DNA of 64,000 bases, from NCBI GenBank assembly GCA_007376135.1, contig VMFR01000001.1:142554-206553 (forward strand), given 5' to 3'. Position numbers and translations under genes: made by a program. The stretch is from Parcubacteria group bacterium Gr01-1014_31 (GTDB lineage Bacteria > Patescibacteriota > Patescibacteriia > Buchananbacterales > GWA2-38-13). Shown here piece after piece: positions 31,215 to 62,067 of the stretch (the stretch's first letter is position 1; each line of letters begins with the position of its first letter). The notes under the pieces were generated by a model. That model saw nothing but the letters and a program-made list of their open reading frames with translations, did not search any database and was not told the origin of the DNA.

Positions 31215-31820
31215 CTATTCCTGCACGGTGACGGAGCGCAGCACGACGTCTTCCGTCGGTCGGTCATTCGCGTCCGTCGCCACCTTTTCAATGGCCGCAA
31301 CCACGTCCATTCCCTCCACGACCATTCCGAAGTTCGTGTGCTTGCCGTCCAACCAATCGGTCGCCGCCTTGGTCACAATGAAGAACTGACTGCCGTTGGT
31401 ATTCGGGCCGGCGTTCGCCATCGCCAGCGACCCGCGCACTAATTTATGCTCGTTGATCTCATCCTCGAAACGGTAGTCCGGTCCGCCGGTACCCCAGCGC
31501 GATTTGGCGGCCAGATCCTTGCTCAGCGGATCGCCGCCCTGGATCATAAAATCGCTAATGACGCGGTGAAACCGCGTGCCGTCGTAAAAGCCTTCCCGGG
31601 CCAGTTTGACGAAATTGTCGACGGTCTTTGGCGCGTCCGAGCGGTAGAGCTCGACCACGATCGTCCCCTTGCTGGTAACCAATGTTGCACGCATAGTTGT
31701 GGCAATTGGCGTCGGCGTCGGAGTGGGCGTCACCGCCACCCCGCCGGCCGGCAGATTAGAATTTTTTACGCAGCCGGCGATGAGGACGGCCGCAATGAGA
31801 AGAAATGATCGTGGTCGCAT
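31215..31820 (-). CDS. Cyclophilin-type PPIase, predicted lipoprotein
   Basis: LIAGC lipobox; FHRVI.DFMIQGGDP, MANAGPNTNGSQFFI, WLDGKHT. Confidence 0.93.
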   Translation of the reverse strand: MRPRSFLLIAAVLIAGCVKNSNLPAGGVAVTPTPTPTPIATTMRATLVTSKGTIVVELYRSDAPKTVDNFVKLAREGFYDGTRFHRVISDFMIQGGDPLSKDLAAKSRWGTGGPDYRFEDEINEHKLVRGSLAMANAGPNTNGSQFFIVTKAATDWLDGKHTNFGMVVEGMDVVAAIEKVATDANDRPTEDVVLRSVTVQE

Positions 31821-32019
31821 AGTATTCTGTATTAACTATCCCCAAGCCATACACCGTTTCACCCTTGACGGGCCTCACCCTGCCCATCTCGCGTTTTTGA
31901 ACAGTGCAATATTGGGGATAAAGTAATAAACTGCCTTTTCTGACCGTCGATGCACGCGCTTTGTCCCGCTCCATCCTGGGGGGAAATCGAACCTTCATAC
32001 TGGGCTCTCCCACACATTG

Positions 32020-32090
32020 CTGGGGGGGAAGGAATCGAACCTTCATTCGCAGCTCCAAAGGCTGCTGTCCTGCCATTAGACGACCCCCCA
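32020..32090 (-). tRNA. tRNA-Gln(TTG), intact, no encoded CCA
   Basis: TGGGGGG TC GTCT AATGGC AGGAC A GCAGC CTTTGGA GCTGC GAAT GAAGG TTCGATT CCTTC CCCCCCA G. Confidence 0.95.
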
Positions 32091-32199
32091 GCAATGTGTG
32101 GGACCTTGCCCGACTCCGCGCCTGCCCCGTCGTATGACGGGGCCCTGTTTTACCCCACACCTTTCGACCTTAAATAGCAGAGCTACTTTGCTTGCCTAC

Positions 32200-32270
32200 C
32201 CGCGGGAGCAGAACTCGAATCTGGATTCACGGCTCCAAAGGCTGCTGTCCTGCCCTTAGACGATCCCGTA
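32200..32270 (-). pseudogene. Degenerate tRNA-Gln(TTG)
   Basis: Same D and anticodon loop pattern as the intact copy, but mismatches in the acceptor (A-C), anticodon (A-C) and T stems (C-C), and A53 in place of G53. Confidence 0.75.
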
Positions 32271-32359
32271 GTTATGGAAGCGATAGTACTAAAGGTCAAA
32301 AGGTGTGGAGCGAGGACGACCCCCCCCAGGACGGGACGCAACGTCCACCGGTACCGGCA

Positions 32360-32587
32360 TCAACTGAACCGCACCGCGTTATAGATCTTCCTGGCAGCAA
32401 AGTACATGACGAAGGCGAAAAAGACTCCCAGATACCCGAAGGTGCCGACCTTGAGCGGCAGCGAAATGTGTTGGCCGACGATGAAGTTGACGACTTCAAG
32501 CACTAAGAGCACGCCCATCAGGATCATCACGATGAAGATGAGCATGACCACGGTCAGAATGGTTTCCAAAAGCCGGCCGGCGTGCAT
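32360..32587 (-). CDS. Small two-TM membrane protein
   Basis: 75 aa hydrophobic ORF with a TTGACG-N17/18-TACGCT promoter-like sequence upstream (about 32602-32630). Confidence 0.65.
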   Translation of the reverse strand: MHAGRLLETILTVVMLIFIVMILMGVLLVLEVVNFIVGQHISLPLKVGTFGYLGVFFAFVMYFAARKIYNAVRFS

Positions 32588-32637
32588 AGGTACGAAGTGG
32601 TAGCGTAGCGGGCGGGGGGCGAAACGTCAATCCCGCC

Positions 32638-33552
32638 TCAAACTTTCAGGTAACGGCGCACGGCGAACACCGATCCCACCATATTTAGCGCCGACATTCC
32701 CAGCAGTTGCGAACCGAAGATGGCCACAAAGTTCTCGCGGAAATAGCCAGCCAGATCGAGCGGTACGCCGGTAAAGAAATCCTGAAGATACGGCTGCACC
32801 GCATTCAGCAACGGGAATGTGACCGCCACAGCGAGTCCGGTCGCGCACAGCGCGTACAGCACGCCCTCCAGCACGAACGGCGCGGTGATGAACGCGTTGG
32901 ACGCGCCGACCAGCTTCATAATGCCGATCTCGTCGCGGTGCGTATAGATCGCGACGCGGATGGTGTTGAACACGATCAGCGTGGCGATCAGGACGAACAG
33001 CGCCGATATCGCGATCCCCGCCTGGTTAATGCGGTCGGCGATCAGTCGGATCTCGTTGATCGTACGCTGGTGGTCCTTATAGTTCTCGTCGCTGACCAGA
33101 TCGCGGTACGGCGAATGGTTGAGCACCTGGATGATCTCCGGGTAGTCCGAGGGGTGTTGTGCGGTCACCACCAGCGTCGCTCCCAGCGGGTTGTCGCCCA
33201 GCTCCTCCAGAGTCTCCAGGATGGCAGCGTCACGGGCGTGCCGCTGGCGGAATTCTTTCATCGCATCGTCGGCGGTCACGAGCGTGATGGCGGTCACCTG
33301 TGAAAGCTTGCCCAAGTAGTCCTGCACCTCTTTGACCTTCGGCGTGTCCACCACCGGGTCAAAGTAAATGCTGACGTCGATCTTTTGCTCGAGGGAGGTA
33401 ACGGCGGAATCGGCGACGACATTGAGCGCCAGCAGCGCATTGACCGTCAACGACGCCAGCGCGATGATGCTGACGGTCACCAGCGACAGCCAGAAATTGC
33501 GCCAGAACCCTTGCCAGGCGAATTTAATGACGCGGTAGATGGTCACGAGCAT
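32638..33552 (-). CDS. ftsX: Cell division permease FtsX
   Basis: NPLGA, IVFNTIRVAIYTHRDEIGIMKLVGASNAFITAPF. Confidence 0.92.
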   Translation of the reverse strand: MLVTIYRVIKFAWQGFWRNFWLSLVTVSIIALASLTVNALLALNVVADSAVTSLEQKIDVSIYFDPVVDTPKVKEVQDYLGKLSQVTAITLVTADDAMKEFRQRHARDAAILETLEELGDNPLGATLVVTAQHPSDYPEIIQVLNHSPYRDLVSDENYKDHQRTINEIRLIADRINQAGIAISALFVLIATLIVFNTIRVAIYTHRDEIGIMKLVGASNAFITAPFVLEGVLYALCATGLAVAVTFPLLNAVQPYLQDFFTGVPLDLAGYFRENFVAIFGSQLLGMSALNMVGSVFAVRRYLKV

Positions 33553-33557
33553 ATGCT

Positions 33558-34244
33558 TCAACTCAACCGATAGCGCCCAACCGCCTCATCGGAGGTCAGT
33601 GTGCCCTGATCAAGTACCAGCACACGGCGCCGGATCTGATTAACCCTCCCCTCGTCATGGCTGACAAACAGCACGGTCGTACCGATCTGGTTGATCTTCA
33701 GCAATAACTCGATGATCTCTTGCGAGGTGGCCGTATCCAGGTTGCCGGTCGGCTCATCCGCCACCAGGATCTTGGGACCGTGGGCGAGCGCCCGTGCGAT
33801 CGCGACGCGCTGCTGCTCGCCGCCGGAAAGGTGGCGCGGGAAACGGTCGTGCTTATCGGCCAACCCGACGATCTTGAGCACCTCGGGGACGATCTTGCGG
33901 ATACGCGAGGGGCGCGCTCCGATCACCTGCATCGCGAATGCGACATTCTCAAAAACGGTCTTCTTTTGCAATAATTTGTAATCCTGGAAAACGACACCGA
34001 TCTGCCGCCGAAGGTAAGGCACTTCACGAGACCGGATGTGCGTAATGTCCCAACCGCCGACGACCACCTGCCCTTCGCTCGCCCGCTCTTCGGCGGTCAG
34101 GATCTTGACCAGCGTGGTTTTTCCGGTGCCGCTCTTGCCAACGATCGAGATGAATTCACCCGCCAAAACCTCGAAAGAAACGTTGGCCAAAGCGACCGTG
34201 CGCTCAGGGAAATAGATTTTGGATACGTTGCGGAAGATGATCAT
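33558..34244 (-). CDS. ftsE: Cell division ATP-binding protein FtsE
   Basis: [38 protein letters not shown]. Confidence 0.93.
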
Positions 34245-34267
34245 GGGTTTTGAGGAACGCGCACGGC

Positions 34268-34305
34268 TTGAAATTTCTACCCCAGCGTGCGTATACTGGT
34301 ATACT
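34268..34305 (+). promoter_or_regulatory. Probable promoter(s) of the Gly/Thr tRNA cluster
   Basis: TTGAAA-N18-TATACT and a second TGgTATACT extended -10. Confidence 0.55.
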
Positions 34306-34357
34306 GCTGTCCCAACGGCATCGGGTCAAGGGATAAGTCTATTCCCGGCCGCCACGC

Positions 34358-34548
34358 GCGGGATTAGTACCATGGTAGTACGTCGGCTTCCCTCGCCCCT
34401 CACCTTTACGATTGGCTCTCTGCGGGTGTAGTACAGTGGTAGTATGCTAGCTTCCCAAGCTAGAGATGGGAGTTCGATTCTCCTCACCCGCTCCAGGTAA
34501 AGGTGTGGGGGCAAGCAAAAGACGCGAGTTCGATTCTCGTATCCCGCT
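34358..34548 (+). pseudogene. Outer interrupted tRNA-Gly(CCC) shell (exons 34358-34392 and 34513-34548)
   Basis: GCGGGAT TA GTAC CATGGTA GTAC G TCGGC TT CCC | 120-nt insert | AA GCAAA AGAC GCGAG TTCGATT CTCGT ATCCCGC T; intact acceptor, D and T arms, mismatched anticodon stem. Confidence 0.85.
34422..34495 (+). tRNA. tRNA-Gly(CCC), intact with CCA, nested in the outer Gly shell
   Basis: GCGGGTG TA GTAC AGTGGTA GTAT G CTAGC TTCCCAA GCTAG AGAT GGGAG TTCGATT CTCCT CACCCGC T CCA. Confidence 0.95.
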
Positions 34549-34589
34549 CGCTGCCGCGGTTCGGCAGGATATTCGCGCGGTTGCCTTAG

Positions 34590-34808
34590 GCCGAAGTACT
34601 TTCACATCTTGCCTTGCCGGAGTAGCTCAGCCGGTAGAGCAGTGCTTTCGTAAAGCAAAGGTCGAGGGTTCGAGTCCCTCCTCCGGCTTGGCAAGATGTG
34701 AAAGATGCCGATCATTGTGGGTTTCCCGCCGTTCTCCTCTTTCGGTTATTGAAATATAGGGAGGAGGGACCCCGCCGACGGCGGTGGCGACTCCCACCTT
34801 CGGCTCCA
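34590..34808 (+). pseudogene. Outer decayed tRNA-Thr-like shell
   Basis: 5' GCCGAAG-TA (34590-34598) pairs perfectly with 3' CTTCGGC followed by T-CCA (34798-34808); eroded T arm GTGG-CGACT-CCCAC. Confidence 0.7.
34616..34688 (+). tRNA. tRNA-Thr(CGT), intact, no encoded CCA, nested in the outer shell
   Basis: GCCGGAG TA GCTC AGCCGGTA GAGC A GTGCT TTCGTAA AGCAA AGGTC GAGGG TTCGAGT CCCTC CTCCGGC T. Confidence 0.95.
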
Positions 34809-34884
34809 GACAACTCCGTAAATAGGAAAGATCGGCGCCCGCAGCAGCCGATTTTTCATATCCGCTGCCCTCCGGAAACTGGAA

Positions 34885-36105
34885 CTACGGCGCGTACCGG
34901 TGGATGTTCATGCTGCGCAGGATCTCCCCCAGCCGTTGTTCAAAATAGTCGACCGGGGTCACGGTGATCACGCGTAGCCGCAGCCGCAGGTCGCTCCCCT
35001 CCCCGACCGATTCCTCGCGCAACAGCAGCACATACCCTTGGGCGGTGCGCATCGGCGGCGATACCTCCCCGTCCGAAATCTTTTCCGCCGCGGCAAAGAT
35101 CTGAACATCAAGGTCGTCGCGGCCGCGATACCCCAAATCTCCGCCAATTGCACGGCTATCATCGCGATTCACCTCGCTCGCGGTCGCCGCGAAACTGCTG
35201 GCGCCCTCCGCGAGCGACTGATGGATGGATTTGAGCCGTACGGCGGCCGCTTCCCAGGCCTGCGGGTCTTCCCAGAGCTTGGCGCGGACCGCGAGCTCCA
35301 GCAGGTAGGGCCTTACCAAGCGCTCGGAAAAATCATCCAACGACCAACCATAAAAATTCTCCCGCACGCTCTGCTCAAGCCGCTCCCTCGATCCGCTCTG
35401 CGCGATCAACTGCTGCAACTGCGCGTTCACGGCGGCTGCACCGACCTGCACCTGGTACTGTTCGGCCAGGCGGTCGATCGCCGCCTGCCCGACGAAACGA
35501 GTAAATGCCTGCCGCCGCAGTTCACCGTCGCCTTGCGGTCTGCCGGTCCGCACCGATGACCGCCGCAGCATTTCCACGTCGCGCAAATAATCATCCAGCC
35601 AGTATACCCGACCGTCGGCGTCCACGGCGGGGAGCGGCAGGACCCTCGCCAGCGCCGCCACGGCCCAGTTGCTCCAGCCGAATCGGTACGCGCCGACCAG
35701 AACTACGGCGAACAACATGGTTACGAGCGCAGCAAAAATCGACACGGCCAAAAGAGGAGTCCGCCGCCGTCTCTTGGCGGTTTGTGCCGGCCGCCGCGGC
35801 GGTCGGGTCGCTCTCCTTGCTCTTCCCGGCGGCAGCGCCAAAGGAAGCCTCGGGATGATCAACTTCAGCGCACGTGGAACCGACTTTTGCGGCGGAGCGG
35901 CCGCAGCCGCTGCGGTGGTAGTCGTTTTCTTTTTTGGACGCGTCGGGCGCTTGGGTACGCTCGCCTTGACCGCCGACGGCGCGGGCTTGCCGGCAACGAT
36001 CTTGGGGCGTTGCCGGTCCCGCTCGATCCACGCCAGCACCTCACGCCGCATCGCCGACAGTTCGTTTTCGGAAAATGTTTTTCCGTTCGAGGATAGATCG
36101 GGCAT
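34885..36105 (-). CDS. SurA/PrsA-like foldase (membrane anchor, SurA-N, parvulin) with basic disordered N-terminus
   Basis: TM, LPLPAV, YGWSLDDF, SFAATA...GGDLGY...VSPPMRTAQGYVLL. Confidence 0.8.
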   Translation of the reverse strand: MPDLSSNGKTFSENELSAMRREVLAWIERDRQRPKIVAGKPAPSAVKASVPKRPTRPKKKTTTTAAAAAAPPQKSVPRALKLIIPRLPLALPPGRARRATRPPRRPAQTAKRRRRTPLLAVSIFAALVTMLFAVVLVGAYRFGWSNWAVAALARVLPLPAVDADGRVYWLDDYLRDVEMLRRSSVRTGRPQGDGELRRQAFTRFVGQAAIDRLAEQYQVQVGAAAVNAQLQQLIAQSGSRERLEQSVRENFYGWSLDDFSERLVRPYLLELAVRAKLWEDPQAWEAAAVRLKSIHQSLAEGASSFAATASEVNRDDSRAIGGDLGYRGRDDLDVQIFAAAEKISDGEVSPPMRTAQGYVLLLREESVGEGSDLRLRLRVITVTPVDYFEQRLGEILRSMNIHRYAP

Positions 36106-39346: not shown

Positions 39347-39422
39347 GGGTCCATAGCTCAGTTGGTAGAGCAGCTCCCTTTTAAGGAGACGGTCGCAGGT
39401 TCGATCCCTGCTGGACCCACCA
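39347..39422 (+). tRNA. tRNA-Lys(TTT) with CCA (ordinary, not nested)
   Basis: GGGTCCA TA GCTC AGTTGGTA GAGC A GCTCC CTTTTAA GGAGA CGGTC GCAGG TTCGATC CCTGC TGGACCC A CCA. Confidence 0.95.
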
Positions 39423-61590: not shown

Positions 61591-62032
61591 GCTGTGGATA
61601 GCCAGGCGGTCGCTCCGATACACAATCGGAGAGGAAAGTCCGAACACCCTGGTTGTCAATTGACAATCTGTCGCGGTAGTGGGTAACGCCCACCCGGGCC
61701 GCAGCAATGCGGCTTGAGGACCAGTTCCACAGAGACCATACTAACCCCGAAGGGGTTATCCCGAGCGACGCCCGCAAGGGCGGAGTCGAGGGATCTCCCA
61801 TTCAGGGCAAAACGTGAAAAGTGTGGCGAGGTCATTGGCTACAAGTGGGAATTCCCGGTAGCTGACGGCTACGCTACTCCGCGCCCAGCGATGGGACGCG
61901 CGTGGTAAACTCTACCTGGTGCAATGCCAAGTTTGGTCGGCAGCATGAGGCCGCCAGCAATGACGGTCCCAGAGAGATGATCGCCACCCGCCTTCGGCGG
62001 GGACAGAATTCGGCTTACCGGCTATCTGCAGC
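61591..62032 (+). ncRNA. rnpB: RNase P RNA
   Basis: GAGGAAAGTCC, CACAGA, GGTAAAC and ACAGAA-TTCGGCTTA conserved regions; P1 GCTGTGGATAGCC/GGCTATCTGCAGC. Confidence 0.93.
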
Positions 62033-62067
62033 AATAAAAAACCCCGCCTCAGCGGGATTTTTTATTG
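62032..62067. terminator. Bidirectional terminator after rnpB
   Basis: CAATAAAAAA-CCCCGC-ctca-GCGGGA-TTTTTTATTG. Confidence 0.8.

Follow-up and report, generated by a model that had tools for sequence, protein, structure and literature searches.

Why should intact tRNA genes lie inside the remains of other tRNA genes? The question is raised by a 64,000-nt stretch of DNA from Parcubacteria group bacterium Gr01-1014_31, the whole of which is called the window here, where three such nests were found at positions 31977-32328 (minus strand), 34358-34548 and 34590-34808 (both plus strand). All three nests are real: in each, an intact tRNA gene stands in an inverted-repeat cassette, and the cassette lies inside a broken, older tRNA gene for the same amino acid, termed the shell. 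Very probably the nests result from break-and-replace events at the DNA level that leave dead shells behind. We further consider it likely that such a nest is a short inverted-repeat tRNA cassette, set in a decayed gene of the same amino acid, that descends from a selfish hairpin element mobilised by a GIY-YIG nuclease.

Three nested tRNA genes within 3 kb

The inner genes, tRNA-Gln(TTG), tRNA-Gly(CCC) and tRNA-Thr(CGT), were found by ARAGORN and Rfam with 62-70 bits. They are wrapped by stems of 13 bp (Gln), 14 bp with one mismatch (Gly; 34396-34409 with 34497-34510) and 15 bp (Thr). The original prediction, made from the letters of the window, had claimed three nested cases within 3 kb and stems of 13-15 bp around the intact genes, and both claims are confirmed by the two programs and by alignments to the alleles of relatives; what it took for one conserved stem proved to be three stems. 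The genome of the window is denoted G000 and the related genomes G001, G002, G003 and G005, of which G001 and G002 are sister species.

Once positions 34392-34511 are skipped, the Gly shell agrees at 67 of 70 bases with the intact Gly(CCC) allele of G001, in keeping with the earlier claim that it retains the anticodon of the inner gene. Its alignment score was 56.5, compared with 14.5 for the best other amino acid and 11.5 for the shuffled maximum. The Thr shell, previously assigned from its acceptor stem, is upheld as such: when a 64-nt hairpin that the prediction had overlooked in the T loop is skipped, its 3′ part equals the intact Thr(CGT) gene of G001 at 26/26 bases, and the first 9 bases are those of the same gene. 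Its D and anticodon arms are lost, and it scored 20.0 (best other amino acid 14.6; shuffled maximum 13.0). The Gln shell is the weakest by alignment and the most eroded of the three (17.4 against 15.0 and 12.5, with the 3′ part alone recovered), and its identity also rests on a homologous nest in G002. It was correctly taken for a tRNA-Gln; missed were a second cassette with a decayed tRNA-Gln and a 20-nt hairpin, which it holds in addition to the cassette of the intact gene.

After in-silico removal of the Gly cassette, ARAGORN reported a tRNA for 68 of 255 pairs of cut points. Because several different anticodons resulted, this test cannot fix the junction, and alignment to the alleles of relatives was used instead. 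The coordinates of all features are collected in Table 1.

Table 1. Positions of the nested tRNA genes, their shells and associated features in the window.
Feature	Position	Strand	Remarks
Gln shell, 3′ part (T arm and acceptor strand)	31977..32007	-	blocks of 13/13 and 8/8; homologue in G002
3′ arm of the cassette with intact tRNA-Gln	32008..32020	-	13 bp, perfect with 32091-32103, beyond the acceptor
Intact tRNA-Gln(TTG)	32019..32090	-	CCA not encoded; ARAGORN, Rfam 62.1 bits
5′ arm of the intact tRNA-Gln cassette	32091..32103	-	arms like these surround the un-nested Gln of G001
20-nt GC hairpin inserted in Gln shell	32124..32143	-	
3′ arm (family C) of older cassette, in D loop of Gln shell	32155..32176	-	
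Decayed tRNA-Gln, cargo of older cassette	32200..32270	-	Rfam 28.8 bits, E 0.0035; five broken pairs
5′ arm (family C) of older cassette	32287..32308	-	
Gln shell, 5′ part (acceptor strand, 5′ side of D stem)	32315..32328	-	read from sequence; pairs with 31977-31984 in the predicted fold
Putative sigma-70-like promoter upstream of Gly shell	34268..34297	+	10/12 consensus
Gly(CCC) shell, 5′ half, to position 35	34358..34391	+	33/34 with G001 allele
120-nt cassette in anticodon of Gly shell	34392..34511	+	family C arms in reverse orientation (34396-34409, 34497-34511)
Intact tRNA-Gly(CCC)	34422..34495	+	15/70 bases differ from the G001 allele matched by the shell
Gly shell, 3′ half	34512..34548	+	34/36; anticodon stem broken by two changes
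Older tRNA-Thr(CGT) shell, first 9 bases	34590..34598	+	equals the start of the intact G001 gene; upstream flank similar
Cassette with 15-bp arms (34599-34613, 34690-34704)	34599..34704	+	
Intact tRNA-Thr(CGT)	34616..34688	+	CCA not encoded; ARAGORN, Rfam 68.3 bits
Thr shell, 5′ side of T arm	34715..34723	+	9/9 with G001
64-nt double hairpin between T55 and C56 of Thr shell	34724..34787	+	56-58-nt relatives occupy this site in other shells
Thr shell, 3′ end with CCA	34788..34808	+	17/17 with G001
tRNA-Lys(TTT)	39347..39422	+	un-nested here; half cassette in G002

Assembly of the nested region

The genome of the window measures 1.34 Mb in 8 contigs, with about 60% GC, and was probably assembled from a metagenome. 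No single contig spans the whole stretch, and positions 34549-34634 are not bridged by the listed pieces of a separate assembly, X1, perhaps from the source sample. A 22-kb contig of X1 is, however, identical over 31700-34548 with even depth, runs from three other studies contain the Gln shell with 9-12 differences, and G002 has all three nests with substitutions of its own. On these grounds the nests are not an assembly error, and collapsed or mis-assembled repeats, raised earlier as a danger to the prediction, may practically be dismissed.

The shells are older genes and are decaying

That an older gene was replaced, as had been suggested, is borne out by empty sites, foreign inner alleles, three-layer nests and an unchanged chromosomal position. 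G001 keeps the Thr shell allele of the window as an intact gene at the same place behind tRNA-Gly, and an un-nested Glu(CTC) gene of G002 is close to the corresponding shell of G000. In G003, the inner Gly allele of the window has in turn been interrupted in its T loop, by a cassette with the family allele. Three layers were seen for Gly and Thr in G003, and for Thr in G005 and at locus L220. Relative to the ancestral allele, the inner genes differ by 15 (Gly) and about 10 (Thr) changes that preserve the stems, and the dead shells have nearly not moved; because such stem-keeping differences stand beside little-changed shells, the inner Gly and Thr genes would have been imported and are not local copies.

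Decay of the shells was measured on the changes that they have accumulated. Among changed pairs 59 of 112 are broken in shells, compared with 34 of 4753 between intact alleles, and invariant positions are mutated in 28/466 compared with 43/8442 cases. Dead shells also acquire additional hairpin inserts. The arms change as fast as the unpaired flanks between G000 and G002 (29/665 and 30/748; 16 loci used, 7 skipped), and 15 of their 27 changed pairs are broken. The tRNA-splicing proteins EndA (PF01974) and RtcB (PF01139) were each found in none of the five genomes. Since shells and arms decay, and neither protein was found, a spliced or functional shell RNA is unlikely. Judged by these comparisons, the shell is an older resident gene and appears to be dead.

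The prediction had also allowed for a designed precursor or intron system, releasing the inner tRNA together with a religated or tRNA-like shell. Consistent with it are the promoter-like site upstream of the Gly shell, the acceptor strands of the shells, which still pair in predicted folds, and an archaeal tRNA-Trp intron, described in passages of PMC4090602, that carries a functional small RNA. The decay just described speaks against it, as do the insertion of cassettes in both orientations and the Thr shell that lacks two arms. No group I or II intron family of Rfam matched within 31700-35000 at E values up to 10, and at the one junction inspected by eye a bulge-helix-bulge did not fit. We regard such a useful shell RNA as highly improbable.

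Nests in the genome and in its relatives

In G000, a same-strand copy of at least 12 nt occurs within 450 nt of 26 of the 50 tRNAs called by ARAGORN, where 200 random draws gave a mean of 0.29; some of these copies are neighbouring tRNAs. Inverted repeats with a score of at least 9 clamp 23/47 tRNAs, compared with 6 of 1411 mismatched flank pairs. Nests were then counted with a custom aligner permitting long insertions, by which 380 tRNA alleles of all isotypes were compared with the flanks of each tRNA. Shell pieces on both sides were found for 16 of 45 tRNAs in the own genome, and nesting recurred in the relatives, where its occurrence had been named as a check on the prediction, at 23/87 in the genus, 5/53 in the family, 9/46 in the order, 2/34 in the class and 0/44 in the phylum. 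The sets of relatives are partial and based on 150 of 210 matches listed; for order, class and phylum, the tRNAs with the best scores were taken from about 30 genomes each, together with some additional loci. Throughout, the count covers tRNAs with at least 60 nt of free flank.

Searches by pattern reached further. A strict pattern of arms and T loop, too narrow to give a prevalence, matched in 2 of 400 other genomes of the phylum. Another arm pattern gave 135 loci (120 genomic, 15 viral), mostly chance matches; 9 of the loci had a tRNA and 15 more both arms and no tRNA. The named genomes that have the same cassette family together with a tRNA are Patescibacteria. Seven pattern-picked loci were counted separately; six were nested, five with a matching amino acid.

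In a streamlined genome, the tRNA genes are usually counted among the stable parts that are inherited vertically. In the present genome one in three shows replacement, in many cases by an allele of foreign origin, and the layers allow the order of events to be read. Annotators of these genomes should be warned that split tRNA halves are not introns.

The best-matching shell allele was for the amino acid of the inner gene in 55 of 55 nests, with the same anticodon in 51; in the other four it differs, for example in a Val-TAC gene within a Val-GAC-like shell. The chromosomal position of nested genes is orthologous in 12 of 14 testable cases, and among 47 tRNA genes one is surplus. With the place so often kept and a single surplus gene, same-isotype targeting looks guided and not only selected; guidance by homology is possible, and we give it a little less than even weight. 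The shell is nearer to another allele than to its own inner gene in 25/57 nests (counted without the flank filter, hence 57) and matches its own inner allele in 32.

An adaptive defence, in which a swap of alleles lets the cell escape anticodon nucleases or tRNA-targeting integrases, might draw on the 25 nests with a different allele, where the attachment site would be changed. The same amino acid is, however, mostly served by the same anticodon and in 32 nests by the same allele, and the shells retain their old 3′ ends. Integrases use the 3′ ends of tRNA genes. This explanation we find scarcely credible.

Inserts and arm families

We distinguished 116 inserts, 51 with an inner tRNA and 65 consisting of a hairpin alone. 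They fall within the D, anticodon or T loop in 37/51 and 47/65 cases, respectively, with hot spots at positions 21/22, 35/36 and 55/56, and 23 of the 51 cargo inserts split the anticodon loop. At least nine different positions are split, in both orientations. The insertion of cargo cassettes often removes 0-4 nt of the target, as read by eye, instead of duplicating it. The wrapped tRNAs encode the terminal CCA in 7/59 cases compared with 157/281 of the others.

Three families of arms were sorted by eye. Family A is a GC palindrome of about 20 nt, family B a 30-nt double hairpin with a 57-nt form, and family C is made up of the arms of the Gly cassette and of the older Gln cassette. In G000, 16 of the 17 copies of family C arms lie near tRNAs, in regions that make up 2.9% of the DNA, as do 18 of 57 copies of the family A core. 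Family C, a variant of family A and the 57-nt hairpin were found in both orientations relative to the tRNA, which agrees with an effect exerted at the level of the DNA and not of the transcript. One pair of arms was seen empty, with AT-rich filler or with a tRNA, and between shared arms there may be nothing, filler, a tRNA or a solitary GIY-YIG gene, whichever the orientation.

The nests might instead be collapsed remnants of integrase-driven elements, such as prophages or islands whose integration depends on a tRNA, that kept only the rescuing tRNA. The logic would be that of the tRNA-dependent lysogeny described in passages of PMC10865867, and the many splits in the anticodon loop would agree with it. 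The ends are, however, inverted arms that abut the tRNA and not a directly repeated core, and the split positions are too many and the orientations mixed. The cargo inserts of the window measure 106-120 nt and are without tyrosine integrase open reading frames (ORFs), and the arm patterns gave no tRNA-bearing match in 15 viral loci and no viral autonomous form, integrase genes not being part of that search. We therefore hold collapsed integrase elements to be very unlikely.

Some further features of the inserts were noticed. The AT-rich filler (59-75% AT, 87-89 nt from arm to arm) is of almost constant, tRNA-like length, very variable in sequence and situated outside tRNA genes (loci L147, L199, L204, L208, L209, L211, L228, L239, L242, L243 and L247); it could be fossil tRNA cargo or reflect a length rule. 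The arms of the 57-nt T-loop element are constant, and its AT-rich loop, about 20 nt long, differs from copy to copy in a genome of 60% GC; the element sits at T55/C56 in shells of G000, for example near 68100 and 193200 of contig C5 and near 436000 of C3. The family A hairpin also occurs within the loops of other repeats (C3 near 247600, 329800 and 330700), and two copies of one host repeat contain different hairpins at the same position.

A GIY-YIG nuclease as candidate mobiliser

A link to hairpin-bounded GIY-YIG elements had not been seen in the original prediction. The arms of the Gly cassette are those of an element family of about 300 bp that elsewhere encloses a gene for an 85-residue nuclease. 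Five small GIY-YIG genes, with predicted single-domain products of 80-85 residues (PF01541), are present in G000, and four of these adjoin tRNAs. When loci were chosen for the presence of the nuclease, a tRNA was no more than 250 nt away from 10 of the 30 small ORFs, not counting a duplicate row and an added locus. At Val-TAC, Gln-CTG, Asn and Ser-GCT, only one of the two genomes G000 and G002 has a nuclease cassette. The D loop of the Val shell contains, in G002, a GIY-YIG ORF with a single internal stop between family C arms, where in G000 such arms enclose a tRNA.

A metagenome scan for autonomous family C elements gave 121 loci, which were reduced to 95 distinct ones after 22 duplicates and 4 incomplete loci had been dropped. 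The right arm directly follows the ORF in 76/95, and the unit measures 282-320 bp. A target duplication of 4-7 nt was found in 31 of 79 autonomous elements, compared with 4% of shuffled pairs, and the variable arm positions 13-19 pair at 77-92% within an element and at 27-53% between elements. Of 20 hand-picked loci, Rfam placed 11 within or directly beside genes for 23S or 16S rRNA, RNase P or tRNA. Phylogenetically, the tRNA-adjacent and the arm-bounded nucleases form one clade (support 100/98) apart from the SRM-like-flanked proteins; the clade labels, SRM-like among them, were assigned by eye, and one tRNA-adjacent protein (Ser-GCT) falls outside. At Ile-TAT and Asn in G000 and at Lys in G005, the end of a GIY-YIG ORF forms the upstream arm, and the downstream arm repeats that end in reverse. 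Searches of PDB and the ESM Atlas returned generic GIY-YIG/UPF0213 matches only.

A reverse transcriptase was considered as mobiliser and rejected, being present in two of the five genomes and found in none of G001-G003, which have nests. A Y1 transposase was likewise rejected, none being found in G000; DDE families were not searched. We consider it rather probable that the predicted GIY-YIG nuclease mobilises the cassettes.

Several observations weigh against the descent of the nests from a nuclease-mobilised element. No intermediate of the order arm, ORF, tRNA, arm was seen among the 95 elements, no GIY-YIG remnant was found inside cargo inserts (best E 1.4), and no GIY-YIG gene lies within the three nests of the window. 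Family C alone is tied to the nuclease gene, no such tie was found for families A and B, and the stems of the inner Gln and Thr genes matched no arm family. Of the 79 autonomous elements, 41 are without target duplication. To our knowledge GIY-YIG enzymes are hydrolytic nucleases and not transposases, so that host repair must do the joining. Where the shell matches its own inner allele (32 of the 57 nests), local duplication fits equally well. As to the counts of nests, a few calls may be due to chance because the maximum of 195 shuffled scores was 20.5 (99th percentile 16.5), above the shell threshold of 18; the genome-wide count missed the Thr and Gln nests of the window itself, and kin genomes are not independent.

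A possible route of insertion

The formation of a nest may be depicted as follows. By analogy with SsnA, the nuclease would cut a tRNA gene in single-stranded DNA, both in the loops and close to the acceptor stem. From this stem, fold-back synthesis would then copy the upstream flank, make the wrapping stem and overwrite the encoded CCA; this would explain stems that abut the acceptor, the three loci with reverse-copied arms and the low frequency of encoded CCA. The cargo would pair with the resident gene, probably as DNA acquired by transformation, so that the cassette reaches its own isotype, and selection would remove insertions that bring no rescue. Finally, the cell would cut the inner tRNA from the long stem by RNase III, RNase P and the CCA-adding enzyme, leaving the shell RNA without a job. 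comEC was found in 4/5 genomes, RNase III and a CCA-type polymerase in 5/5, and the RNase P RNA gene in the window; with these last three present, release of the inner tRNA is plausible. How tRNAs clamped in long stems mature without an encoded CCA is a question that the nests raise. Single-copy anticodons suggest that the cargo tRNA is needed for survival.

Selection could also have acted alone, if hairpin cassettes hit any stem-loop, or tRNAs duplicate locally, and only cells with an intact copy survive. The 32 shells equal to their inner allele are as expected from this, and so are a tandem copy with a decaying downstream twin at Gln-CTG in G002 and the landing of autonomous elements in rRNA genes, RNase P genes and elsewhere; wobble rescue might allow the four nests with differing anticodons. 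Random landing predicts many ectopic extra tRNAs, however, in place of a single surplus gene and a position kept in 12 of 14 cases, and local duplication cannot yield 10-15 compensated inner differences beside a nearly unchanged dead shell. Selection alone is in our view unlikely.

The elements might be a novel class of bacterial mobile DNA, in which an element of about 300 bp with a solo GIY-YIG nuclease gene inserts hairpins in the loops of RNA genes in single-stranded DNA and its non-coding derivatives use a captured tRNA gene as address and ransom; we propose this tentatively, somewhat more so than guidance by homology. Were it true, essential tRNA genes would be swapped repeatedly between small-genome lineages, each swap being recorded as a layer. 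If insertion is driven by nothing more than a GIY-YIG nuclease of 85 residues, it would represent a route without transposase or integrase, and a candidate tool for loop-directed or cargo-guided insertion.

Comparison with known systems

Short palindromic non-autonomous elements such as miniature inverted-repeat transposable elements (MITEs), repetitive extragenic palindromic (REP) sequences with their REP-associated tyrosine transposases (RAYT), Rickettsia palindromic elements and IS200/IS605 relatives spread in trans and nest mutually. Like MITEs, the cassettes share terminal inverted repeats with an ORF-bearing partner (for family C only) and have empty sites in relatives. Unlike them, their cargo is an essential gene that replaces the target, and no transposase was recognised, the sole ORF being GIY-YIG. 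As to target duplication, which is of fixed length in MITEs, 31 of 79 autonomous copies have 4-7 nt and 41 have none, and cargo cassettes often show a small loss in its place.

The published systems that follow are compared as they are presented in parts of the papers cited. In the tRNA-dependent lysogeny of actinobacteriophages, a whole prophage is inserted by a tyrosine integrase at one attB core of about 10 bp, and excision is possible (PMC10865867). As in the nests, the host tRNA is split and not rebuilt at the junction, and the replacement there corresponds to the same-amino-acid replacement found here in all 55 nests. The claim of the prediction that no known insert carries a full same-isotype tRNA needs amending at phage scale. 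The inserts of the nests differ in being 100-300 bp long with inverted arms, many positions, both orientations and layers.

Ssn is encoded by a small single-domain GIY-YIG gene flanked by the hairpin repeats NTS/SRM, and SsnA cuts single-stranded DNA beside the hairpin, tolerates loop extensions and affects transformation (PMC11893778). The main text of that paper mentions neither tRNA nor the candidate phyla radiation (CPR), the sections considered here report no insertion activity, and its Discussion contains a comparison with IS200 and REP. By analogy, this system is the model for the action of the nuclease proposed here, which is likewise a small single-domain GIY-YIG protein. In contrast to Ssn, a family defined by membership of cd10448, the tRNA-linked proteins form a clade apart from the SRM-like-flanked group, the arms differ, and the flanks are family C arms or pieces of tRNA and not SRM/NTS repeats. 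GIY-YIG inserts at stem-loops of CPR rRNA genes, unlike group I or II introns, are described in PMC11270868 and are probably the autonomous family C seen here; neither arms nor a mechanism are dealt with in the passages concerned, and tRNA is not mentioned in the main text.

Bulge-helix-bulge and group I introns of tRNA genes are inserted at the anticodon, D and T loops (PMC4090602). The nests differ in that no EndA or RtcB was found, in their occurrence in both orientations, in being mostly too short for a ribozyme core and in the decay of the would-be exons. In homology-facilitated illegitimate recombination, a short homologous anchor integrates linear transforming DNA with an illegitimate junction (PMC3240628). 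Isotype targeting might come about in this way. The product has a homologous end and another that is illegitimate, and is not a two-armed insert within the anchor.

The nests resemble a tRNA-dependent lysogeny on a scale of only about 100 bp, and also a MITE whose cargo is essential, yet they fall outside both definitions, and they belong to neither the Ssn nor the intron families. With fair probability, the route of insertion is of a new kind. Nested tRNA cassettes are undescribed in the literature covered, which was thin for subscription papers and excluded supplements, including those of PMC11270868 and PMC11893778.

Neighbouring genes and further observations

The nests flank ftsE (33558-34244) and likely ftsX (32638-33561). 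The tRNA-Lys had been put forward as an unwrapped control, and this holds in the window but not in G002, where it has half a cassette.

The sole surplus tRNA gene is a second Arg(TCT) in AT-rich DNA (G000, C8:19000-19900), with probable small ORFs nearby, between long inverted GC hairpin arms; it is possibly an ectopic cassette. At L132 (G000, C5:8700-9800), a tRNA-Ile(TAT) lies three layers deep with the same 76-nt element on both sides, and the stop codon of a GIY-YIG gene falls within the tRNA. Ile-TAT is often nested in the order sample also. In several autonomous family C copies (for example L396, L424, L427 and L466), a -35-like hexamer and a -10-like sequence directly after the element give the target a promoter-like appearance.

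The reverse transcriptase of G000 (325 residues; L392:1705-2995, C3 near 510200-511500) is retron type VI-like and has a helix-turn-helix neighbour, and two DUF559 nuclease genes were found in the same genome (L129 and L130; C2:38266-38586 and C6:114535-114858). The RNase P RNA gene of the window (61594-62033) exceeds the length of the Rfam model by about 70 nt, with inserts in several loops, and has near its 3′ end a GC hairpin resembling family A.

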